This document shows, in pieces, positions 12,296-57,722 of a stretch of DNA of 64,000 bases (its first letter is position 1; every line of letters starts with the position of its first letter). Below the pieces are notes generated by a model. That model had not been told where the DNA came from, searched no databases, and was given only the letters and a program-made list of their open reading frames with translations. Location of the stretch: NCBI GenBank assembly GCA_964016885.1, contig OZ024743.1, positions 342,178,001-342,242,000 on the forward strand, written 5' to 3'. The translations under genes and the position numbers were made by a program. The DNA comes from Eledone cirrhosa (taxonomy: Eukaryota).

Positions 12296-12949
12296 ATATT
12301 ATATTATATTATATTATATCATATTATATTATATTATTTATTTATGTTCATATACGGAACAAAGGGGCTACCAAGGTTGCATGGTCCGAATTTGACCTCA
12401 CCTAAAGAAAAGAAGGGGCATCAAAGTAGTCACGTCTCTACAGGCGCTAATACCAGTTTATAAGTTACCGTTAAAGACAATGTTAAACAAATGAATAGAA
12501 ATAAGTACAAGATGTAAATATGAATTTTGAGATCAACCACGTGTTTGTGTTTGTATACTATAGCAGAAGTATTGTATTGTGTGATGGAATGTAATATAGA
12601 GACAGTAATATTTACTAATGTATCGAGTATAGTAGTAAAGAACATGTATTAGATTATGTGAGTGTGGAAAGAGAACGAGAAAGAAAATATATAACGGGAG
12701 TATATAAATGAAATTAAGGTGGTTGAAAATCAATCGAAATTGTTGAATATTTCCACTTAGCAAGCAGCTGAGTTTTGAAATGGAGACATATATAAATAAT
12801 ATAATATTTCTGCTCTTATCCCGATTAGGCACTGTTTTCTATTTTCCATTTCGCATCTACAGAAATTCCTACGTACACACATACAGACATACACACTCCC
12901 CCCCCCTCCCACACACACACATGTATATAAATATATATATATATATATA

Positions 12950-13266
12950 AGGAAAAAAGATGAAATCGAAAATGCAACTGGAGAGTTATTTTTAAAAAAA
13001 ATATATTTATTTGGTTCCTTTACCGGTTTCGCAGTTCTTCTGCTTTTCAAAGGTAGAATTGATATGGAGGGTTTGTGGTTTTTCTAACAGACCCTCCATC
13101 TCAACTCTAGTTTTGAAAAGCAGAAGAACTGCGAAACCGGTAAAGGAACCAAATAAATATATATATTTTTTTTAAAATAAGACTCCAGTTTCATTTTCGA
13201 TTTCATTTTTTTTTCTTATACTTTCAGTCGTGTAGGACACCGCGCTTATTTTGTAAAAAAAATTCA

Positions 13267-13270
<4 letters not shown>
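12950..13270. mobile_element. Fold-back pLTR element, UUGAAAA-HHR family, between (TA)n tracts
   Basis: Arms 12950-13075 and 13087-13220. HHR copies lie at 13017-13053 (-) and 13111-13146 (+). Same family as 39840-40258, 57335-57722 and 25862-25930. Confidence 0.85.
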
Positions 13271-13299
<29 letters not shown>

Positions 13300-15281: not shown

Positions 15282-15496
15282 GTTAAAAATGTACATCCAC
15301 ATATGTATACTGAAATACTAGTATGCATATGAATACACACACGTATACATATGTAGATGTACCAAGTTTTTCACTGGTCACTTTACCGTGAGTGTCCAGC
15401 TATTCTGTATGTAAACACACAGACAAACCGGTTTTTAGAGTCATACTGGCTTTTGAGGAAACACCTTTCCTCTATTCTCCAGAAAGCCAGACAAGG

Positions 15497-15541
15497 AATA
15501 TTGAACTAGTTTCGTTGTTGTTACAACTCATCAGCAATATT
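15497..15541 (-). ncRNA. Type I hammerhead ribozyme, canonical core (inverted copy)
   Basis: Reverse complement of 16002-16046. Confidence 0.85.
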
Positions 15542-16001
15542 TACCTATCTACCGGCCTTTCTGGAGAATCGTAAAAGCACATATCGTTATATGCTTTTTC
15601 TATGAAAATTAGTAGTGGGCAGACTAATTTGCATAGAGTGTGAGTACGTACCGGTTCAACGGAGACGATAAAAACAAATAACGAAACGAAATTAAATTTC
15701 GTTTCGTTTGTAACTCACTTTTGTATATGTATACGTGTGTGTATTCATATGCATACTAGTATTTCAGTATACATATGTGGATGTACATTTTTAACTTAAT
15801 TGTTTAAGCGTCAGTCATACAAAAGTGAGTTACAAACGAAACGAAATTTAATTTCGTTTCGTTATTTGTTTTTATCGTCTCCGTTGAACCTGTACGTACT
15901 CACACTCTATGCAAATTAGTCTGCCCACTACTAATTTTCATAGAAAAAGCATATAACGATATGTGCTTTTACGATTCTCCAGAAAGGCCGGTAGATAGGT
16001 A

Positions 16002-16046
16002 AATATTGCTGATGAGTTGTAACAACAACGAAACTAGTTCAATATT
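16002..16046 (+). ncRNA. Type I hammerhead ribozyme, canonical core
   Basis: aauauug-CUGAUGA-GUUGU aaca ACAAC-GAAA-CUAG-UU-caauauu. Stem I extends via ttctccagaaag/ctttctggagaa. Confidence 0.88.
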
Positions 16047-16334
16047 CCTTGTCTGGCTTTCTGGAGAATAGAGGAAAGGTGTTTCCTCAAAAACCAGTAT
16101 GACTCTAAAAACCGGTTTGTCTGTGTGTTTACATACAGAATAGCTGGACACTCACGGTAAAGTGACCAGTGAAAAACTTGGTACATCTACATATGTATAC
16201 GTGTGTGTATTCATATGCATACTAGTATTTCAGTATACATATGTGGATGTACATTTTTAACTTAATTGTTTAAGCGTCAGTCATACAAAAGTGAGTTACA
16301 AACGAAACGAAATTTAATTTCGTTTCGTTATTTG

Positions 16335-22260: not shown

Positions 22261-24066
22261 ATCTGTGTTTTTGATCGTAGAAATGATGGCGTAGAAAGTA
22301 CAATGCAACGGGACGAAACAATAGCACCACTGACGATGTTGCAGATGTGCAACGAACGAACTTTGATAAACTATATATATGTGTTTGATTCTATATTGTA
22401 TCTGTGTTTTTTACCGTTGGTCAGTCAATGGCAACATTGAGGACCGAATAAATTAAATTACCGATATAAAAGATACAGAAGCGAAAAGCGAAAACCAACC
22501 AAACAGTGAGTGTATTCTGTTATCAATTCTGGCAATATTACACAAATATGACCCTCCCCAAGTATTACAATATTTGTCTCGACACGATTTCATATCAAAA
22601 ACCTCGCAAAACTAATTCATCGCCATTATGGCATTAGCTTGTGCCAAGCTGAAAGGTTATTGAACGGCACTGTTTTCTGTTATATAAAAACTACAATAAC
22701 AACAGAACAAATCCGCTTCTTAAAACACTGTGTTTCCTCCAAAATATACACAACAAACATATCAAAACAAGTAAATAATTTATTTTTGAACAAAACACAA
22801 GCTGAACGACTAAAACACACAATAACAGTTAATATGAAAAGAACAAACATACACAAAAATCAACCAACTTTACAGACAGAAACGCATTAACGGTAAGGAA
22901 GTCCAAAATCTCACCACACCCAACGAGAGAGATGACTTCATGAGCTTCATCCGACGTGAAACGAAATACGCCCGAAACGAATGCAATAGGCATTTCAATA
23001 AGAAATTAGAATGGATTAATAAGAAAAAACTAGAAGAAAGGAAAATAGAATATTCTCAAAAATACCCAGATAACATCAACAATATCCGTATGACTGATGT
23101 AAAACTACCGGAAGAATTTAACAATGACAACACAGTAAACATTTATGGGAACACTTTAATCAGTGAACAAGAACAACAAATCCTGCAGCTACCACCAAAA
23201 TTTGCCATCTACAAAAAGATTAACCCTATTGAGCTGGAAAAGTGTTTCACAAAAATACGTTGGAATGCAAAAGTAAACAACAACAACAACTATACGGACA
23301 ACAACAACAATAATAACGGTAGTAGTAATATAAACAATAACTCTGAGTATAGAAATAACAGCTATAATAGTAATAGTCATAACAATAACAATAGCTGGAG
23401 AGGGACAAATAGTAATAATGGTAATAATACTAACGATAGACAGAACAACAACAACAACCACAATAATAATAATAATAGAAACTACAGACACAGCAGCAGC
23501 GACCACAGTAGTAATAACAGTAACAATACGAATAACAACAACAACAACCACAGTGGTAATAATAGAAATAATACATGTAGCAACATTAATGATAGACACA
23601 ACAAAAACAAGAAACATAATAAAAGTAACAACCACAATGGTAGAAATAACAGTAAAAACAACAATCACAGCAACAATACATCTAGCAATCATAACAACAA
23701 TACATCTAACAATCACAGCAACAATACATCTAGCAATCATAACAATAATAATAATGCTAATGATAGGAACAACAACAACCACCATAATAAAAATAATAGC
23801 AAAACACACAACTATGACGATAGATATAATGACAACCCTTAGAGAAACTATTCTTCAACCCAGCTGACAAAACATATAAGACGGGTAATATCTATCCTAC
23901 GAGGTTACCCTTTAATAAAAGAGTTTGCATACCACAACAAATAGATGACGAGACAGAGGCACAGTTCACCATAGCTAGAAATAAGATTAGACAAATAATA
24001 GACCGGTTTACTAAGAGACAGAGCAGACCAGAGATCCAACAACTTGGGAGGAAACCTGTAGAAGGC

Positions 24067-25203
24067 TTGGTTAGCCTCAAGCAGCGCACAAGGGATGGTG
24101 AGGTAGTATGTCTACCCACGGATAAGTCTGGTAGGATGTCAATAGATAGCATGCCGAACTACATCAAGGCTATGCAACCCCACACCACCAACACGAGCGA
24201 AATTGCACAGCAAATACATGATGGGAGAGAGAAAATCTTCAACGCTCACATGATGATGTGGACTGACATCCTAAAGCCAAGCAGACGCACTGCCAACAAC
24301 TTCCAGGCGTCTAACAATGGCATACCACCCTTGTATGTGCTCGGCAAAGACCACAAGACAGTCGACGGCACGACAACAGGACCACCAACAAGACCCGTAT
24401 GCGGAGCAAATATAGCTAGCAACTACAGGATATTCCACTTCCTCTCAATGGTTATACGCCCCATAATCAAGATGTCCCCAGATGTATCTGACAGTACAGA
24501 GGACCTCCTCAGCAGAATCAGTGAGTGCAACAAAAACAGGAACCTATCCAACTGCATAATAGGCAGCATGGATGTGGTATCACTGTACCCATCCATTAAC
24601 ATTGATTTTGCCGTGGAAAAATCTGTGGAGATGATCAGTGAGAGTGAGGTGGAGTTCGGCGACGTCGACACAAAGGAACTGGGCCTCCTACTTAGACTTA
24701 GCTACGAAACTGACTACCTAGACAGCCATGACCTTAGACGTTTCTGCCCCAGTAGACCCATAAGAGGTAGACCCCCCCCCCCCACCATAACCTCAATGGC
24801 TAAAAAGACTCCCATGGGAAGGTGGATTGGGTGGACCAAAGCTATACGGACCACCCATAACAATGATCAGTTAAGGAAAATGGTCGCACATGCAATAGCG
24901 GCTAGTATCAAAACTACCCTAAAGGGCCACATATTCAAGTTCAACGAGAAGATCTACACCCAAAATAAGGGAGCAGCCATTGGCGTCAGCATAGCTGTTG
25001 ACGTTGCAAACCTTTTCATGGTATGGTGGGAAAGGAGACTTAAAGATCTCCTTAATAAGAGCTCCATAGACCTCATCATGTTCTCTCGTTACGTAGACGA
25101 TATCAATATAGTTATAAGAACATCCCCACAAGAGAGCACTAACAAGTTTGATTTAGAACGTAGCACATTGCTACGTAGTACATTGGAAGCATCCAGCAGA
25201 TAG
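24067..25203 (+). pseudogene. PLE reverse transcriptase core (frameshifted at both ends)
   Basis: TDKSGR, KDHK, RPV, GSMDVVSLYPSI, QNKGAAIG...ANLFM, SRYVDDI. Confidence 0.92.
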
Positions 25204-25628
25204 CTAATTCCATACACCAGAGTATAACTGTAACTATCGACTACCCTTCCAAACATCCTAACAATAGACTACCTGTATTAGAACGTGTCCAGCATGTGCG
25301 ACCCAACAGAAATGGAAAGACACATCCAACACTTCATCAACCGCATGCAGTTCTCTGGCTACAACCAAAGAGACAGAATCAGAGTATACGAAGGAGCCAC
25401 ACTGAGAAGTATAAGACCCTCATAGAACTGGACATGAAAGGAATTTGCCCATTATACAGGAGCAAATCATGGAATAGCTTAGATAGGGCTAGACATAATA
25501 TATGGAAAGCCACCTCATGGTACGACAACCAGAGATACCAGAGTGTCATGTTTGTGGACGCTACCCCTGGAGGCAAATTAGCTAACTAGTGTAGAAAGGC
25601 CCTGAGAAAGACCCACTTAAAGAATAAG

Positions 25629-27724: not shown

Positions 27725-27782
27725 TATAAAAATTATAAAAAATAAACCAAAGAAGCCTTCAATACATCAAAAGTCTTTATTA

Positions 27783-27820
27783 GCCAACAATGTTTCGTCC
27801 TATTAAGGACTCATCAGGGC
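27783..27820 (-). ncRNA. Minimal type I hammerhead ribozyme, canonical core
   Basis: gcc-CUGAUGA-GUCC uuaaua GGAC-GAAA-CAUUG-UU-ggc, in sense orientation about 60 nt from the PLE 3' end. Confidence 0.88.
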
Positions 27821-29425
27821 AAGTAAAGCTACAAGAAGCACTATCGGCCAATACAAGCCAAAAACTCAGAAGAATATGGAGTATACATCTATTAAAGCTT
27901 AGGAAAGATATCAAGGAAAGGTTGGCTAAGATTAAGAGTGAGCAGTTACAAACATAGATATAGACCAAATAGCAAGGAAGTGATTAACATGCTGAACCCA
28001 CATTGCAAATATTGTATAATGCAAAAACTTGAAACACAAATGGTAATATAATGCGAGAATTACAGTACGATATAGAATGTAATATAATATAATAGATGGT
28101 GATAATAAAAAGCTTAATATATGTATATATATAAATATCTATACATATACACATTAGTACAAACACAAACTAACACTTATTAAGTATTTAAATATATATA
28201 TATATATTGTTTACAGTATAATATAATAAAGATAAAAATAAGAATAAAGATAAAAATAAAAATAAAATAATATATAATTCCCTGTCAGTGTGCATAAACA
28301 ATATAGAAACATTATAATAACAATATTATAATATATTGACATCAAAAGATATACAAAATTACATCATACATATAATTCAAGGTTAACAAATAGTATAAAG
28401 TTTTACACAGAGTAAGAAAAAATCATATAGAACTAAATTGTGTTGAAAAAATATCTATATCATTGTAACAAATACACGGAGGTCAAGTCATTTTACATTG
28501 GCATAAATATTACCAAAATATCACAAAATATTACAAAATATAACAGAACAGTACCTCAAATAACAGACATATATTAAAATCTATAATACGATTACATAAA
28601 AATGATATGATATAACAACGTTAATATCAAATAGCAAGCAGAGTGTAAGGAAATGCTTAATATATATATTTACGTGGTTGACATACACAGACATATATTA
28701 ATGAAATTACATGATCAGACAGACAGCGTGTGGTAGTAAAAAAAATAAATTAAATAAACAGGAGATCGAAAAACAAAAACAAGTATATTTACTTAGGTGT
28801 CACAAGCGGTTACGTAAAAGAAAAAAAGATAGAAATGTAAGCCGGAGAGTTGACTAGAAAACCTTTTTAAATTAATTAATATTAAAAGTATTTAAAATAC
28901 ATATTTAGTCACTTCAAAATTGGCTAGTGTTTAAGTCATCAAAATCGTATAAGTTTAAGATATCTCAATAAAATTATCTAGAATAGAGTAAAATATGCTC
29001 CGTTCAGTCGAATAACGTTATCAAATAAAAGGACTCTAAATAGAACTATGGTAGACCAATGGGAAAAGAAAGAAGAGAGGTTATGGAGGATAGGAAGGAG
29101 CATAAAAGTAAAATCAATATATTATATAATATCATAAAAAGGAGCATAAAGGTGAAATTTATATATAGTATAATAGAAGGGGCGGATATTAAGTGTGTAG
29201 AGGAGGAGGTTCATTAGTTGAATGAGACTCCAAACAAAGTATTTAATAAGATATAAACTCATAAGGTGTTAGTAGTGAAACTATAATAATGCTTAAGAAG
29301 ATAGATAGGGTATGGTATCCAAAAGACTATGGAAACTAAAATCGAAAAGCTGTAAAAAACTAATAATAATAATGATGATGGTAATCAAAATGAACCTAAA
29401 CAAAAAAGATAAAGAAATATAGCAG

Positions 29426-31600
29426 CTAATGGATACGATTTAAACTACCAGAGCTTTTAGGTCTATAATAGAAGAAAGAATTAGAAATCGCATGGGGGCA
29501 GGAAGAAAATATCTCAGACTTTCTATTAAGCAAAACTTCCCTAGAGAAAATTATAGAGTGGGTCTCTAGGATACAGAGATTACATAATTTAGTGTGTATT
29601 GATAGGTTATTAGAGCGTGCCACTATACGCCAATTAAGGCTATATGGCATACCAGCCACTTTAAGATCCCAGATATGGTGTGCTAAAGAAGTAGACTTCT
29701 TAAACTTAACATGCTTAAAATTAGAGATATGAGAATTAAACCTATTTTAAAAGTATTAGATGTGGAGCCTATATATGTGATATTAGAAGAATTAGTCTTA
29801 ACTTCACAAGCATAAACAATGTTCCTAGAGAGGCAGTGACCATTTAAAGGGCAGTTAATACTTACTCTACAGTTACACTTCCGGGTGCTATTGACCGGCT
29901 GAATGAGTGATGCATCACTCCTAGGGTTATTATAAGATAAGGTCTGCTCAGGTGGTAAGGCATTAATGGATCTATCAAGACTAGTAGTACGCAAAGAGGA
30001 GTAGCTGTCCCTAATTTTCCTATTGTTAGTGCTAGCTAAATGAGAACTAATATTAGGGGTGGTAGAGAATGATAGTTTAATTACATTTTTATTAAAAATA
30101 CCATGGTATTTATTAGAAGGAGGGAAATTTTTCTCTAAGATAGAAAAGAAAGACCTAGGGATGTTAGTTAATACTTCATGATCATAAGGCGGGTTAAAAT
30201 AAGTATTGAGTCTCCTCCTATTTCTATCCTTACCAACTCTACCGTTATCCAGTATCCCACTAATAGGATCAGGGTTACTACGAGGACTAGTTGAAACAAC
30301 ATTATTAGAAGCAGCCAAAACCCTATTGAGCCTCCTTCTGTTTCTACCTTTAGTATATCTACTGTTATCTGGAATCATATCAATAGGATTAGGGTTACTA
30401 CCAGGATCAGTTGAAACAACACTATTAGAATTAGTAAAAACATTACCACTGGGTGAGCGATCAGAGTGCCTAACTTGTTCCCTAGAACTAATCCCGAAAA
30501 GTGTACCATTAGACACACTATTACGATTACGGTAGCTTAACCTATGGATGGGTTCGGATACACCAATGGGATTTCTACGATTCTTATGCTTTCTACTCCC
30601 ATTTATGGCCATATTATGGGATATTATGTTATTATTATTATGGGTAAACGGAGACTTTCTAAGGTTGTTCTCATTATAACGTATTTTACCAGAGTAACGA
30701 GAGTTAGCTAGGGCATTATTATAGTACTCCGCATGTGAATTAAATATTCCTATATCCTTAGAGAGTGTGGAAATTCTATTAGATACACCGTTAATTATAG
30801 GGCTAATCATAGATTTGGGGTGGTTAGAATTGGGATTAACATAAGAGAGTATCTCATTTGGCTTATGGAAGGGTTTATAACTATTAGTGACCAAGTCCAA
30901 AGTCACATCTAAAAAGTTGACCGCTCTATCATTTCTATCAATCGTGATCGAAAGGTTAAAATTTTAAAAAAATGTATAAAGTTTCTTCCTATTATGCACA
31001 ATGTTATTGGTGCTAGAGTTTATCACAAACAATGGATCGTCACGATAAAGTCCGCCTTTAAGGTGCGGAAAGGTAACATACAGTTCATTAAGGAGGAACA
31101 GCCCAACAAGATCAGTTACCTGGGCTGAATCACTCGAACCCAGTGAGTGTAACGTCGAAGTTGTTGGGTGTGTTTTTACGCGTCCAGAGTGTATCCTCAA
31201 ATTTGATGATAGTCCTACGGGCTGCTAGTATAACATCAATCTGCGGTCGTGTAAGGCTAGACACTCGCATGGCCATAATTAAGGCTTTATTAAGGAGGAT
31301 AGGTGAAATCGACGTGTAATAGGCATCAATATCAAACTGGATAAACCTACTAGACTAAAGTTTATTAATACCAGAGAACCAATCTATAACATCCTTAGTG
31401 TTCCCCCATAGATTAAAATGAACCTTTTCCCTAACGGCTGGTATAATCAGGTCAAGGATTTTCTTACTAATTATAGCTATATCAGACTTAGAAGGACTAA
31501 TGAGTCTAACAGAAGGATTACTAATGAAGTCTACCTTATGATCCTTAAGAGTGAATCTCGGTTCCCTAGGGTAATATGGCTGGGTATACTTATAATTCTT
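29426..31600 (-). pseudogene. Frameshifted RT plus GIY-YIG ORF of the Nematis-like PLE
   Basis: ORF pieces 30964-31200, 29683-30906 and 29426-29659 join into one protein across frameshifts. Confidence 0.9.
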
Positions 31601-31696
31601 CGGCTCTGTTTAATTACATTGAGCTATATATTATACTGTCATTTCTATAATATGAAGAGGGTGTTTAACTCCAACACACTCTAGTATTTTAATTCT

Positions 31697-31880
<184 letters not shown>

Positions 31881-32312: not shown

Positions 32313-32347
<35 letters not shown>

Positions 32348-32399
32348 TATTTATAGTTATGTATATACTATAAACAACTATAAACAGGAAAGGTGAGTA

Positions 32400-34430
32400 A
32401 TTTCCTATTACCTTATTGCCAGTAAGAGAAATAACTCAATGTAAGAACATCAGTCGTTTTACCGAGCAGGAAAATAAATAAATTAGACAATTATGAAAGT
32501 TGTGTTCAAATCATTTAATAGCTGAGAATCGTTTCTTCCAAACTCTCGTTTGGAATGATCGGAGCATTATCCATGTTTGTACATATAATTAACCTCCTAT
32601 CCAACTGAACAATAATATAGATACATATATATTGATGTTGTGAGCAACAGCTTCGCATTTACCGGGTGGAATGGATGTGCCATATATTTTACGAGAATTG
32701 TACAATAATCGTACAAAAATTCAAATTCAAATTAAAGGCAGAGAGTGGAATACACGCAACAGATAAAACAAGAGAATAGTCCAATAATTAAAGAGGCATT
32801 GAGAAATGTGTTTTGAGAAAGGAAGAGTACATTAACAATACATATGCAGGCGTGCGGAGAGTACAACTGCGTTAGTAATATATATGAGAAGGAAACAAGC
32901 AAAGTTATTATGCATATATAGATAAGTAAATACTGCACTTTAAGCAAATATATTAATGTATTAAAATCTATGGTGGATATAGTATGTTGATAGTGTTTGA
33001 ATTAGTGTGTTAAGAAACAAAGTTTTTGCAGTCTTTTCCATTACATATGTTGAATTAAATTTAGTTAATGTTTATATTGAATGTTTTAAGTTAGTTAGAG
33101 CAATGGATTGTAAATTAGGCTTAGTGTATTCATATTCATGGACTAAAGTTCATCAACCGGTAAATTTTCCAATCGTTAATTTCCGGAAGTGAATAAGGGG
33201 AGCTAATGCGTAAGGGGAGATAACTAGCTAATTAAATTCAATTCAGTTATTTAAATTCTTTGCTCTAATACACATTATAATGTGATACCATTGGATCTCT
33301 ATTACACCATGTTATATATTTATACTTGATCTTAAATACAGTGTATTTTACTGTCATACATTAAAGGTCTCTTTAGATTGTTATCTATTCATTACTGGAC
33401 AAGGTATATGTTATGAAGAATTGTATAGCTGTTAATATTTCCAAATAGATATATCATATGTGTAATAATATACATTATTGTTTTAAAAGTTGATCCCAAA
33501 TATACAATACTATTACATTTTATATTTAATTATAGTAGTATATATACTTTAGTATTATTATTATGTGTTAAAGGTAGATAAACTATATACATGTTATTCA
33601 TTTAAATATTTAATTATATAATTATACATGTATATTTAGTTTATTATCACATATTACATTAAATGTCTCTACATACTAAATATCCATTACTGTATATAAT
33701 ATAATTAATCTATTGTAGTTATATCACAAGGTGGTAACTTTATGCTTAATTCTAACTGTCATTGCTGAGCATAAGGATAGAGATAAATAGGAGTTGTGTA
33801 GAGGAAAGAGTCGATCAAAGAGTGTGTGCTTGAGGGTGCTGATAAGTCCTAGATGTAAAGTGTTAAAGGTGGTGGGGAATTCAAATCTGACATTGTTGTA
33901 TACTAACAGCTAGGTTTAAAATTATGGAACGAGTGCCGGTATCTGTGTTGGCACGAGGAGACTGCCTCTGACTTTCTATTAAGGAGGTCTAGTTTCGAAA
34001 AGATTATAGTATGGATCTCTAGAAGACAGAGATTACACAATTTATTCGGTGGTTTATACGATGAGGCCCTACCTACTACTTCCCATTGCAGTGTAAATGG
34101 TCTATTCCTAGTTTTCAGAAAGTGTACGTAGCTAGATAAAGAAGTGGAGCCGGCTACATTGTGTTTTTTGAAAGAGTGGAGGTGCGAGTTGTATCTCGTC
34201 TTGAAGCTGTTCGAAGTAGAGCCTATATTTATTTTAGAAGAGTTGTAAATACGAAACTGTTGCTCATAACATCATTATATATGTATCTATATTATTGTTC
34301 AGTTGGATAGGAGGTTAATTATATGTACAAATATTGATAATGCTCCGATGAAACCAAACGCGAGTTTGGAGGAAACGATTGTCCGCTATTAAATTATTTG
34401 AACACAACTTTTAACTGTCTAATTTATAAT
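32400..34430 (-). mobile_element. 5'-truncated Nematis-like PLE (GIY-YIG C-terminal part, long 3'UTR, inverted pLTRs with decayed HHR)
   Basis: 33910-34235 minus encodes IGSTSNSFKTRYNSH...CNLCLLE...LLNRKSE. Arms 32481-32650 and 34257-34424. HHR-like gct-CCGATGA-..ccaaac gcga gtttgg..-GAAA-CGATTG-TC at 34342-34386. Confidence 0.85.
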
Positions 34431-34434
34431 ATAT

Positions 34435-35488
34435 ATATATATATGAATGTATATATAGTGTATTATGCAATACACTGTATGCTTAATTAAAAGCATTTCG
34501 AAGACCTTACGCTATTGTTTTAGAGTAGTGACAGTCTCATTTACTTTAAGTTTTCAGCAAACATGAGAGATAAAGCTGACAGAGCTCTGTTTCGTACTGA
34601 TTGGTACTTATCAAAGCCAAGTACTCCACCTGTTTGCTGAAAATCGTGAATGTTTGATTCTTATAGAATTCTAGTAATAATCAGGAACTGATTATACAGA
34701 GGGGTTGCCGGTCAAGCTGAAATTAAAAATTAGAATTGGTGCTCTGAAATAGCGATATATATATATGAATGTATATATAGTGTATTTTGCAATACACTGT
34801 ATGCTTCATTAAAAGCATTTCGAAGACCTTACGCTATTGTTTTAGAGTAGTGACAGTCTCACTTATTTTAAATTTTCAGCAAACAGGATAGATAAAGCTG
34901 ACAGAGCTCTGTTTCGTACTGATTGGCTTTGATAAGTACTGATTGGCTTTGATAAGTACCAATACGTACGAAACAGTGCTCTGTCAGCTTTATCTCCCCT
35001 GTTTGCTGAAAATTGAATGTAAGTCAGACAGTCACCACTGTAAAATAATAGCGTAAGGTCTTCGAAATGCTTTTAATTAAGCATACAGTGTATTGCAAAA
35101 TACACTGTATATACATTCATATATATATATCGCTATTTCAGAGCACCAATTCTACTTTTCAATTTCTGCTTGACGGGCAACCGCTCTGTATAATCAGTTC
35201 CTGATTATTACTAGAATTCTATAAGAATCAAACATTCATGATTTTCAGCAAACAGGTGGAGTACTTGGCTTTGATAAGCACCAATCAGTACGAAACAGAG
35301 TTCTGTCAGCTTTATCTCCCCTGTTTGCTGAAAAATTAAAGTAAGTGAGACTGTCACTACTCTAAAACAATAGCGTAAGGTCTTCGAAATGCTTTTAATT
35401 AAGCATACAGTGTATTGCAAAATACACTATATATATACATTCATATATATATCGCTATTTCAGAGCACCAATTCTAAATTTTTTAATA
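34435..35488. mobile_element. Non-coding 322-nt monomer, in tandem on both sides of an inversion (retrozyme-like)
   Basis: 'gaatgtatatatagtg' occurs at 34445 and 34767 (period 322). About 1.5 monomers (-) are followed by about 1.7 monomers (+), with the inversion at about 34921-34945. Confidence 0.88.
34575..34617 (-). ncRNA. Type I hammerhead with U3-A8 core
   Basis: gcu-UUGAUAA-GUAC caauca GUAC-GAAA-CAGAGCUCUG-UC-agc. Further copies lie at about 34946-34988 (+) and 35268-35310 (+). Confidence 0.82.
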
Positions 35489-39841: not shown

Positions 39842-40254
39842 CTTTTTTCCTTATACTTTCACTCGTGTAGGACACCTCGGTTTTTTTTTTCATTTTGTAA
39901 TAAACCTCAATTTCTAATATATATATATATATTAGAAAGTAAGGTTTTTTTACTAAATGAAAAAAAAAACGAGGTTTCCTACTCGAGTGAAACTATAAGG
40001 AAAAAAGATGAAATCGAAAATGCAATTGCAGTATTTTTTTTTTAAATATATTTATATGGTTCCTTTACCGGTTTCGGAGTTCTTGTGTTTTTCAAAACTA
40101 TAATTGAGATGGATGGTTTGTGGTTTTTCTCACACAAACAAAACACATTCTACTTTTGAAAAGCACACAAACTGCGAAACCGGTAAAGGAACCAAATAAA
40201 TATATTTAAAAAAAAAAGACTCCAGTTGTATTTTCGATTTCATCTTTTTTCCTC

Positions 40255-40258
<4 letters not shown>
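39840..40258. mobile_element. UUGAAAA-family pLTR pieces: terminal fragment plus fold-back copy
   Basis: Matches 57335-57722. Decayed HHRs lie at about 40062-40098 (-) and about 40153-40189 (+). Confidence 0.8.
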
Positions 40259-40313
<55 letters not shown>

Positions 40314-47584: not shown

Positions 47585-50500
47585 ATGTTCTTCTGGTTTT
47601 ATAATTTCACAAATGTTTTCCCAATAGAGAGAGAGTCGGTTTCTAATAGACACAAGACTGTCTCATTGGAATTTACACAACATCAACTAGGTAGATTATG
47701 TATGCATCCATGCATGTGTATATATGGATGTTATTGTATGTGTGGATGTGTATATGCTATGTATATGTACATGTGTATATGCCATTATTAGATGCAACAT
47801 TTTTGGAATGTTTTACATATTTTTATTGTTCCATTATTGGATTCTACATGTAATTACCTAACTAGTTGTGTTCTTTCTGTTCCTGTGAAGCCCAGCTTCT
47901 CAAGATTTGTATTGAGGCAGTTACTAACATATCCCAGTGTCCCAATAATCACAGGCATAAATCTGAAGGTGTAATCAGGGTGGAGTATCTGCAGATTTCT
48001 CATCTGTTCTGCATAAATATTCTCCTATTCTCTAATCTTTGATATTATATTGGCATCTGCTTGGCAGCTAATTTCCACTACTATGCTTTCTTCTCCCTGT
48101 CCCATATTATAATATCTGGTCTGTTATGCCTGCATTTTATTGGGGTTTTTACTGGAACATTCCACCACTATTCTTTCATATTATGTACATGGATGTCTTC
48201 CACATTGCTGTAGCTTTTAATGTGTTTATTATCAGGGCTATCGTTTCTACGGATTGCATTTTACAGTGTTCTGGCCACTACATCATGCCTCATAGATAGA
48301 TAGTACCGCGATGACATATTTGGACAGCTGCTGATAACATGGGTGACATCTTTGATGTTAGTTCTGCAGAGTCTGCACTTGTTATCACATCTAAGTGTTT
48401 TGCCTGCATCCCTATCTCTTTTATGAATCAGTTATTTCGTTTTAATTTCCTGTTCTTGGATTGCAAAAGCGTATCCTTCAAAGTCGGAGCCATTATAGCG
48501 GTTGTTGGTCCAAGATAGACTACTTTCCTTATTACTCTCACTCTGGAGCTTTCTGGCAACATATCCATGCATGACTTTTTGCTGATAAGCATGCAGTTTT
48601 TCATACATGGATTCACTGCGATACTGCTGAGTGACTTCCCTGGATGTGAGTTTTTTATTATCACACAGGGAATATCTCTCGAGGAGTTCCTTCCCAATTG
48701 TCATGATCTTATCTGTTTCATGCAGATAGACTTGCTCGAGAGACGGGCTCCTACGCTTCGAGGTTCGTAGATGTCGGAGGGATATGATGCGACATTCAAA
48801 TGTTGTCTGGACTGATGTTAGGCCTCTGTCTCCCTGCTTACGTTTCAAGGAAAAGCGGTCTATGTCACTGTTGATGTGGAAGTTTCCGGCGTTGTTTAAT
48901 ATTTTTCGAGTTCCAACATCAACTGCTCGGATTTCGTCTATCGTGCAATTGAGTATTCCAAACGTTGGTGTTAGGACAGGCACAGCAAACACATTGTGAG
49001 CCACTGTTTTGTTTTACGCAGAGAGTTCCGACGACCAAATCTTTCTTAATTGGGTGTAGTATTCCCTGGTTACGCGTTCCTTATTACAGATACCATTATA
49101 GGATATGTTCTCATCTATCCCCAGGTATTTGTAGCAGTCCTCGCCAGATATCGGTGAAACAGTTAGGCCATTGATGACAATGTTGCTAGAATGGGTTGTT
49201 GTTTTTCCCCGCTTTACAGTCATGTAGGAGCCTTTATCTTGGCCAAACTCCATTCCTAAATCCTTTGAGAACGTTGTAACCAGGTCAATATTTTTCTTCA
49301 TACCATCCATGTTCTTGGCATAGAGTTTCAGATCATCCACAAAGAAATTATGGGTTAGGTTCATATTTCTGTCCTCCTGTGAGCGAATGATGTATCCTTC
49401 ACATTTCTTGAGCAGAAGGGACAAGGAGTTTAATGACAAGATGAATAATATCACAGAGAGACTGTCTCCCTGAAATATACCCTTGCGATATTTTATTTTA
49501 TCAGTGAAAATAGAGTCCTCCCTCTCCGTCTTTAACCTTAGGATAGTAGCCCAAGAAGAAGACAGCTTTTCTATGGGTCTGATAATAATGTCTGGGACTT
49601 TAGCAAGCTGGGGGGCCTCTATCATCCAAGAGTGCGTAACAGAATCGAAAGCTTTCCTGTAGTCCAGCCAGACTGAGGCCATATTCCTTCTAAGTTGTCG
49701 TACTTCCGACATCGCAGTTTTGTTGATTAGGAGTTGTTCAGCACATCCCCAAACCCCTTTCTTTCCAGCTGCTTGTTCATCTGTGATGATGTTATTATTT
49801 TCACAGTGATCTTGGAGGAATAGGTTCAGGCAGGCTCTATACATCTTATCCATCAGGTTCTGGCATGCATTGTGTCGGTAGTTTTTTGCCAAGTGGGTGT
49901 CTTTGTTCTTGGGGACCAGTAACGTTTGTGCTAATGTCAACCATCCTGGTATAAGGGTATCTCCCTTAAGAACTTGTGGATAGAAGCCAGTAAGATACCT
50001 CCGATAGGATATCAGCTTTTTGTACCAGTAGCCGACAATCATGTCTCTTCTTAGTGTTTTCTTATCTTGGAGTTTTCCTATCACAGTCTCAAGGGTACCC
50101 TCACTTATTTAGTATGTTTCTGCTGTAGTGTAGGAGCAATAGTTCTTTCGGATTTCTTTTAGCCAAACTGCATCTTTGTTGAAATTATTCTTTCTGGGAT
50201 GGAGCCTCAGTGACACTTATTATTTTGTTCTTCATATCTCTATAAACTGATGTTTGGTTTGTTTTTCGCTAACAGCTCTCAATTCTTGTTTGAGGGTGAT
50301 CAGCTTATATTGAAGAGTTCTGGTTCTACTATTACCAAACATCGTCTCTATTTTATTTTTCACTCTTTGTTGGTGAGGAGTGAGGTCTTGTTTGTGTTTT
50401 TCGTAGGTCAGCAATCTATTTTTCTACTTTAGATATATATGATGGTATTTTTGGTGGGGTTTTGTTCTTGTTAATATCTCTGCTATCACCAAGATAATGC

Positions 50501-57337: not shown

Positions 57338-57722
57338 GAAAAAGAGATGAAATCGAAAATGCAACTGGAGTCTTATTTTTTTTTTAAATATATATATTTA
57401 TTTGGTTCCTTTACCGGTTTCGCAGTTCTTCTGCTTTTCAAAAGGTGAGTTGAGATGGAGGGTCTGTGTTTTTCTCACATGTGAGATGGAGGGTCTGTGG
57501 TTTTTCTCACATGTGAGATAAACCACAGACCCTCAATCTCAACTCACCTTTTGAAAAGCAGAAGAACTGCGAAACCGGTAAAGGAACCAAATATATATAT
57601 ATATTTTTTTTTAAAATAAGACTCCAGTTGCATTTTCGATTTCATCTCTTTTTCTTTATACTTTCACTCGTGTAGGACACCTCGGTTATTTTTCATTTTG
57701 TAAAAAGAACCTCACTTTCTAA
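57335..57722. mobile_element. Fold-back pLTR element, UUGAAAA-HHR family (best preserved copy)
   Basis: Arms 57337-57470 and 57521-57656, with a duplication of about 32 bp at the apex and (TA)n on both sides. Confidence 0.88.
57547..57584 (+). ncRNA. Minimal type I hammerhead with U3-A8 core
   Basis: ccuu-UUGAAAA-GCAG aagaa CUGC-GAAA-CCGG-UA-aagg. An identical copy is at 57408-57445 (-). Confidence 0.82.

Follow-up and report, generated by a model that had tools for sequence, protein, structure and literature searches.

The window analyzed here, a stretch of 64,000 nucleotides from Eledone cirrhosa (assembly GCA_964016885.1, contig OZ024743.1, positions 342,178,001 to 342,242,000 of the forward strand), contains a 322-nt unit repeated at 34433-35487 in two arms that lie head to head within a (TA)n tract. 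The left arm (34433-34926, RNA sense on the - strand) comprises about 1.5 units, adjoins (TA)n, and has its 3' end at an internal TA site, referred to here as site 0, without a tail. The right arm (34943-35487, end approximate, RNA sense on the + strand) comprises about 1.7 units, has its 3' end past the tail, and likewise adjoins (TA)n. The 322-nt period can be read from the GUC sites at 34900 and 34578 (-) and at 34985 and 35307 (+), and the arms, period, and GUC sites located in this way bear out the description in the first-pass annotation of a head-to-tail unit on either side of an inversion. The inversion junction (34916-34959) falls inside stem II of a hammerhead motif and holds a 20-nt duplication, and tail sequence is also found at the unit-unit junction of the left arm (34731-34754, -). 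A complete unit in the right arm (35155-35476, +) served as the query for genome searches. Toward its end lie two hairpins 5' of the proposed priming sites, hairpin 1 at 35389-35406 (+), which differs between subfamilies by a compensatory C-G/U-A change, and hairpin 2 at 35409-35428 (+), with a compensatory G-C/A-U change. These are followed by an internal TA-rich tract (35429-35452, +), the end of which is site 0 and the first of two fixed 3' ends, and by a tail of about 26 nt (35453-35478, +), strongly conserved across subfamilies, the end of which is the second. The positions given earlier for the long stem-I extension, the two named hairpins, and the internal TA tract are correct, and the absence of coding capacity is upheld: read as an endless circle, the unit has no ATG-started frame longer than 45 codons. 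The ordinary unit of the family is about 320 nt long (majority 319 nt), and the window unit reaches 322 nt because of an extra TA. The host site of the insertion is the (TA)n that ends an unrelated fragment (33903-34427) of a Penelope-like element (PLE). This fragment is part of a 5'-truncated PLE piece (32345-34427) with an endonuclease end at 34271-33903 (-) and an inverted piece at 34245-34427.

Four copies of a type I hammerhead motif, complete or partial, lie in the two arms. In the left complete unit (34551-34643, -) the core spans 34614-34578, with the box UUGAUAA intact at 34614-34608 and a predicted cut after 34578, and the elements follow in the order stem I, UUGAUAA, GUAC/GUAC, GAAA, CAGAGCUCUG, UC, where GUAC/GUAC forms stem II, CAGAGCUCUG stem III, and stem I is long. 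The second copy of the left arm (34873-34926, -) is a 3' half only (34915-34900), with GAAA, stem III, GUC at 34900, and the 3' strand of stem I, and it is without the core box. In the right arm, the copy at 34943-35012 (+; motif 34949-34985, GUC at 34985) has an intact core, a truncated stem I without its outer part, and one stem III change (CAGUGCUCUG). The copy in the right complete unit (35242-35334, +; GUC at 35307) is decayed, with an intact core box (35271-35277), a stem II mismatch (GCAC), and a broken palindrome in stem III (CAGAGUUCUG). The combination of GUAC/GUAC and a perfect palindrome, earlier ascribed to each unit, therefore describes the family majority and one window unit, the left complete one, but not the other three copies. 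A hammerhead descriptor with a U3-A8 core matches the locus and gave no matches in 40 dinucleotide-resampled windows, whereas Rfam at E<=1 reported no hammerhead at the locus, yet matched three others in the window. A sub-threshold Rfam match to a plant microRNA at the locus was rejected, the match being caused by the inversion.

The internal loop of stem I lies at a distance plausible for a loop 1-loop 2 tertiary contact. Stem III consists of 4 bp and a tetraloop, and thus cleavage as a monomer is possible; the suggestion that the palindromic stem III cleaves as a dimer stands as a possibility and not as a necessity. For subfamily A, the family of the window unit, the predicted energies of stem III are -1.8 kcal/mol as a hairpin and -20.1 kcal/mol as an intermolecular duplex, values that would fit optional dimer cleavage. 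The circular unit is predicted to be structured. Its predicted minimum-energy fold differs from the active fold, which costs 2.6 kcal/mol more, and the antisense circle is predicted to fold at least as well as the sense circle.

Other hammerheads and reverse transcriptase (RT) sequences are found elsewhere in the window. An unrelated pair of minimal U3-A8 hammerheads (57412-57441, -, and 57551-57580, +) lies in an inverted TA-flanked repeat, copies of which also occur at 12921-13297 and 39917-40313. A canonical-core pair (15481-15552, -, and 15991-16062, +), assigned to HH9 by Rfam below gathering score, sits in an insertion that is inverted and partly tandem, probably another PLE-type element. 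A broken PLE (27728-31700, -) encodes an RT followed by a Cys-linker and an endonuclease-like region and has a long 3' UTR; a hammerhead (27833-27763) directly precedes (TA)n. Pfam gave no recognition of the endonuclease fragments. RT remnants with Pfam RVT_1 matches occur at 23833-25589 (+) and 49014-50108 (-); from their motifs, we take the former to be Naiad-like and the latter LINE-like.

The unit belongs to a dispersed family of thousands of copies and at least six subfamilies. Within the genome searched, which comprises 3.0 Gb and is rich in TA microsatellites, the unit query found dispersed copies at 96-98% identity (40 scored of 2,186 candidates), a 37-nt core pattern had 125 exact matches, and a 20-mer of the tail had 4,544, with reversed controls giving 0 for both patterns. 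Copies are dispersed as monomers, dimers, and multimers. In 26 of the 30 top copies, (TA)n begins no more than about 10 nt from the tail end, in agreement with the expectation of many genomic copies flanked by (TA)n; three others continue as another unit and one as other sequence. Contig sets of unrecorded kind place the family in two organisms. The U3-A8 pair, seen in 28 of the 30 top copies, is the state of the window family (subfamily A), and subfamilies B-F were found through diverged copies in the flanks of family loci. Their cores read UUGAUAA (B), UUGACAA (C), CUGAUGA (D), CUGAGGA (E), and CUGAUGA with C3-G8 in a 310-nt unit (F). Across the family the unit measures 310-334 nt with a GC content of 0.33-0.38, and mean pairwise differences are 0.052 in A (44 rows), 0.069 in B (14), 0.086 in C (4), 0.102 in D (8), 0.036 in E (4), and 0.025 in F (8). 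As asserted earlier for the family, searches for canonical CUGANGA cores miss whole subfamilies, those with U3-A8; close relatives carry canonical C3-G8.

Subfamily F is a distant sister of A (68-78% identity) for which pattern searches gave 16,913 exact tail matches and at least 1,058 tail-terminated arrays. It is far younger than A and probably very recently active. Its arrays (for example L143:1400-3220 and L240-L314) are near-identical, two-armed, and up to at least 15 units long, and its hammerhead is canonical C3-G8 with a 1-bp stem III and CGCG, the predicted cut falling after GUA in place of GUC. At a further locus (L175:3562-4189), an internal deletion that removes the hammerhead has left a 163-nt unit in three to four tandem copies.

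Comparison of the subfamilies bears on whether the predicted ribozyme fold has been maintained. The core boxes UUGAUAA...GAAA...GUC occur in type I order with the 3-8 pair present. Among 25 copies each of subfamilies A and B, 92.3% of cells are paired, compared with 32-46% in slid controls, and double changes occur in 8 of the 28 pairs, in stems I and II (50 rows), counts that represent few independent events, mainly one contrast between A and B. Positions 3 and 8 are paired in all 50 of these rows and are C-G in subfamilies D, E, and F; N7 varies between subfamilies, and the other core positions are kept, with the 3-8 pair covarying. A tree with positions 3 and 8 masked, determined without subfamily F from 37 of 74 rows, gives the order C, B, D, E, A and requires two changes of the 3-8 pair. 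When subfamily F is added (32 of 82 rows, midpoint root) three changes are needed, two of them forced by strong branches, so that the pair has switched between C-G and U-A at least twice. The compensatory changes in stems I and II, together with these repeated switches, therefore indicate selection on the fold. In subfamilies A, B, C, D, and F the self-complementarity of stem III extends to its center, as it nearly does in E; stem III changes are present in C, and the 10.1-11.1 pair is mismatched in B and C. The subfamilies form a natural series of predicted hammerhead core and stem variants within one lineage. The two hairpins 5' of the 3' ends are 96.4% paired, with double changes in 3 of 14 pairs (16 rows), and may serve as recognition elements.

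The ends of the insertions follow a strict rule. They were analyzed in 60 consecutive tail loci of contig C1, selected for having a tail, with subfamily D copies placed on the subfamily B ruler. The tail end is the 3' terminus of 52 of the 113 arms and site 0 that of 38, with other termini in the remaining 23; the 32 head-to-head pairs comprise 21 with one site 0 and one tail end, none with the same end twice, and 11 with one unclear end. The fixed 3' ends thus lie about 26 nt apart, one per arm, and the window insertion obeys the same rule, its left arm ending at site 0 and its right arm at the tail. In these loci the 5' end is no more than 4 nt from the predicted cut in 5 of the 113 arms, about the chance level, and 52 of the 91 arms with a regular 3' end continue beyond the cut. 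Subfamily F behaves alike, with 75 3' ends at the tail, 52 at site 0, and one elsewhere, and with 5' ends distributed uniformly over the unit, 4 of 135 lying close to the cut, again about chance. The prediction of permuted ends is accordingly right for the 5' ends and wrong for the 3' ends, which are fixed at two sites. Truncation at the 5' end, an inverted copy, a one-sided tail, and a microsatellite target are all present in the family, and any target-site duplications, expected in retrozymes to exceed 4 bp when present, would be masked by insertion into (TA)n. Craig et al. 2021 (accessible text of PMC8557442) described PLEs with just such an inversion, a one-sided tail, and a preference for microsatellites. 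The (TA)n targets, two fixed 3' ends, and scattered 5' ends are Penelope-type signatures.

Variants within individual insertions point to the nature of the template. In subfamily A (51 loci after removing 9 duplicates), units differ by 44-47 per kb within an insertion and by 45 per kb between loci; because these values are equal, the units appear to have been made at insertion and not duplicated later. Rare variants common to the units of one insertion amount to 2.2-2.5 per kb, against 0.17 between loci. As post-insertion change swamps the signal in A, the haplotype test rests on subfamily F, in which 56 of the 76 loci have at least three complete units (444 units in total; 42 of the loci are two-armed). 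Of the variant calls in F, 102 are array-wide, present in every unit of the insertion, 70 are confined to a single unit (about 12 of these being one deletion), and 10 are partial; they define 27 haplotypes. A haplotype is common to nearly all units of an insertion, opposite arms included. Catalytic positions carry none of the 27 array-wide variants, whereas single-unit changes do fall there. One haplotype per insertion, in both arms, with the cut left unmarked, is thus as predicted for one closed monomer recopied, and the template was most likely one monomer copied repeatedly, a circle. The haplotype switches part-way in 2 of the 56 arrays (L266 and L293), and templates are therefore exchangeable. 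The part-way change at L266 is a single A to G, in stem I. Among 23 distinct array-wide F substitutions, 9 are A>G and 2 are T>C, and changes from A to G are found repeatedly, in distinct haplotypes, at positions 120, 137, and 191, a weak bias that could perhaps come from editing, recombination, or tolerance of G-U pairs.

A partner that might supply the enzymes was sought with a single PLE protein as query. The genome contains an abundant young PLE, presumably of the Neptune clade, with intact 713-aa frames encoding an RT followed by a GIY-YIG-type domain, and with alternative TA-bordered 3' ends. Two loci (L211 and L212, on contigs C3 and C5 of genome set G000) hold very young copies of this high-copy PLE with the 713-aa frame intact, and a simple pattern found no hammerhead core in their 3' UTR. 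The unit has no homology to this young PLE family, whose tail differs, or to the PLEs of the window, and the search among them gave no autonomous partner sharing sequence with it. All 60 tail loci consist of unit-family sequence, followed by a simple repeat (TA-rich or other), by flanking sequence, or by the beginning of the following unit, and PLE protein matches occur in 10 of the 60 at variable distance and orientation. Apparent PLE-unit fusions at L011, L012, and L050 were rejected, as a fixed-phase link is absent. At two loci (L033/L213 and L058/L214) an older copy of the abundant PLE adjoins the unit directly through its 3' UTR, in the same orientation and without TA; these joins could come from template switching or target deletion and are not counted as support.

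We consider it likely that the family is a non-autonomous non-LTR retrozyme, predicted to cleave itself and to form monomer circles that PLE enzymes would copy into (TA)n. Judged from its sequence, the unit has what defines a metazoan non-LTR retrozyme, and the genome-wide end patterns, the haplotypes, and the conservation of the fold favor the original proposal of a retrozyme with Penelope-type mobilization and rolling reverse transcription. Tandem copies would be transcribed, and the hammerhead would cut after GUC once per unit, either alone or as a double hammerhead formed through the palindromic stem III. The monomer would then be ligated by a host RtcB-type ligase, a step that the accessible text of PMC7229834 reports in vitro for retrozymes of axolotl and mussel. 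A GIY-YIG endonuclease would presumably cut the (TA)n target, and each DNA end would prime at an AU-rich RNA site, one at site 0 and the other about 26 nt further on, in line with the observed end pattern. The RT would circle the template for anything from part of a unit to at least 10 units without stopping at the cleavage site, which is the pattern seen in the arrays. Finally, the two cDNAs would be joined head to head, probably through microhomology, giving the observed inversion.

The closest competitor keeps the element and the enzymes and replaces the circle with a linear template, either uncleaved multimers or cleaved monomers between which the RT jumps. A homogeneous source array would indeed yield homogeneous daughters, and template switching is real in 2 of 56 F arrays. 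However, the 102 array-wide calls far outnumber the 10 partial ones, which calls for a monomer bottleneck; jumping at cleaved ends predicts 5' ends at the cut, where only the chance level is seen; and both opposite arms carry the same haplotype. We therefore regard a linear template as unlikely, while granting it more weight than either of the remaining explanations. One of these makes the unit a pseudo-LTR (pLTR), or a truncated 3' end, of an autonomous PLE, the very case that the first-pass annotation had put forward against its own proposal. According to the accessible text of two studies (PMC8557442, PMC4209133), pLTRs likewise have fixed 3' ends, a tail, inversions, and hammerheads; PLE fragments do lie near some copies, and the unit may possibly have derived from a pLTR in the past. 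Fixed ends are not proof of a pLTR, because the unit has no ORF attached anywhere in the sampled loci. With the tail always within unit-family sequence, PLE matches that place no RT-endonuclease ORF in fixed phase, and pure arrays of at least 10 units, this explanation is largely refuted and seems very improbable for the present-day unit.

It is equally improbable, in our view, that the family is a satellite or DNA-level element, spread by unequal crossover or DNA rolling circles, in which the hammerhead is dead and coincidental. A DNA circle would also predict array-wide haplotypes, local amplification is discussed for retrozymes in a 2026 preprint (accessible text of bioRxiv 10.64898/2026.07.22.740005), and the hammerheads of the right arm in the window are decayed. 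Against this, A units are as different within an insertion as between loci, the arrays are short and dispersed, and their polar ends and 5' truncation fit target-primed reverse transcription. Additionally, repeated compensatory changes of the 3-8 pair and the stems need selection on RNA, and catalytic positions are spared by array-wide F variants and struck by single-unit changes. Returning to the circular RNA template, we tentatively extend it to a fuller picture, to which we give somewhat less than even credence: each insertion would record a single RNA circle, copied by two RTs, each primed from one end of the same break, at sites separated by 26 nt; the lineage of circles, selected for catalysis, would have flipped the 3-8 pair two to three times; and the recurrent A-to-G changes in stem I would perhaps reflect A-to-I editing of the circle, fixed in the genome on insertion. 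If this is true, the family would explain the origin of Penelope-type tandem and inverted insertions and of one-sided tails, and would offer a currently active system for testing that origin.

Non-LTR retrozymes of coral, mussel, and axolotl are described as 150-450-bp, AT-rich, non-coding elements with a GC content below 50% (Cervera and de la Pena 2020, PMC7229834, accessible text). The Eledone family resembles them in its short AT-rich unit with one type I hammerhead each, its tandem and dispersed arrangement, its thousands of copies, its palindromic loop 3, and its structured predicted circle. It differs from that account in the U3-A8 pair within a full-size hammerhead, the very long stem I, the repeated 3-8 switches in one lineage, and the two-armed insertions with site 0 and tail ends. 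Natural U3-A8 cores have been reported, with in vitro activity cited from earlier work (PMC3088659), and about 1,300 minimal U3-A8 motifs were counted in Schistosoma (PMC4209133), both as given in the accessible text. The hammerheads of the Schistosoma Cercyon PLEs share the U3-A8 core covariation, for which activity in vitro is reported from earlier work; those motifs are minimal, without helix III, and mostly single, whereas the motifs described here have full stems and lie in a tandem non-autonomous unit (accessible text of PMC4209133). A motif is no guarantee of activity, since only one of nine Xenopus retrozyme dimers predicted to cleave did so in vitro (bioRxiv 10.64898/2026.07.22.740005, accessible text).

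PLEs with an endonuclease (EN+), among them Chlamys elements such as MRC1, share with the family partial tandems, an inverted 5'-truncated copy, a one-sided tail, microsatellite targets, and multicopy head-to-tail non-autonomous insertions (PMC8557442, accessible text). In that text their tail is 30-40 nt, compared with about 26 nt here, and hammerheads are mostly missing from the Chlamys elements; unlike in those systems, no partner with a similar 3' end was found for the Eledone family. Literature searches listed no earlier account of this family, of a full-size U3-A8 lineage with core flips, or of per-insertion haplotypes, and supplements or subscription papers may contain one. Mobilization of retrozymes by PLEs has been proposed (PMC7229834; Li, Clavereau, Pollet 2026, bioRxiv 10.64898/2026.07.22.740005), and the 2026 preprint, in its accessible text, likewise describes PLE co-occurrence, monomers, dimers, and multimers, and proposes that PLEs mobilize them. 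Circles as Penelope-type templates were proposed earlier from co-occurrence and homology. The link to PLEs rests there on co-occurrence and pLTR homology and here on insertion anatomy and per-insertion haplotypes, a homologous pLTR not having been found. The metazoan non-LTR retrozyme class and natural U3-A8 cores are already known; what is new is the genomic evidence for the mechanism. The family makes predictions at the sequence level, namely that both arms of an insertion carry a single haplotype, that 5' ends are uniformly distributed, and that site 0 and the tail end are used in strict asymmetry, and the young subfamily F makes the model of a circular template primed from two ends directly testable.
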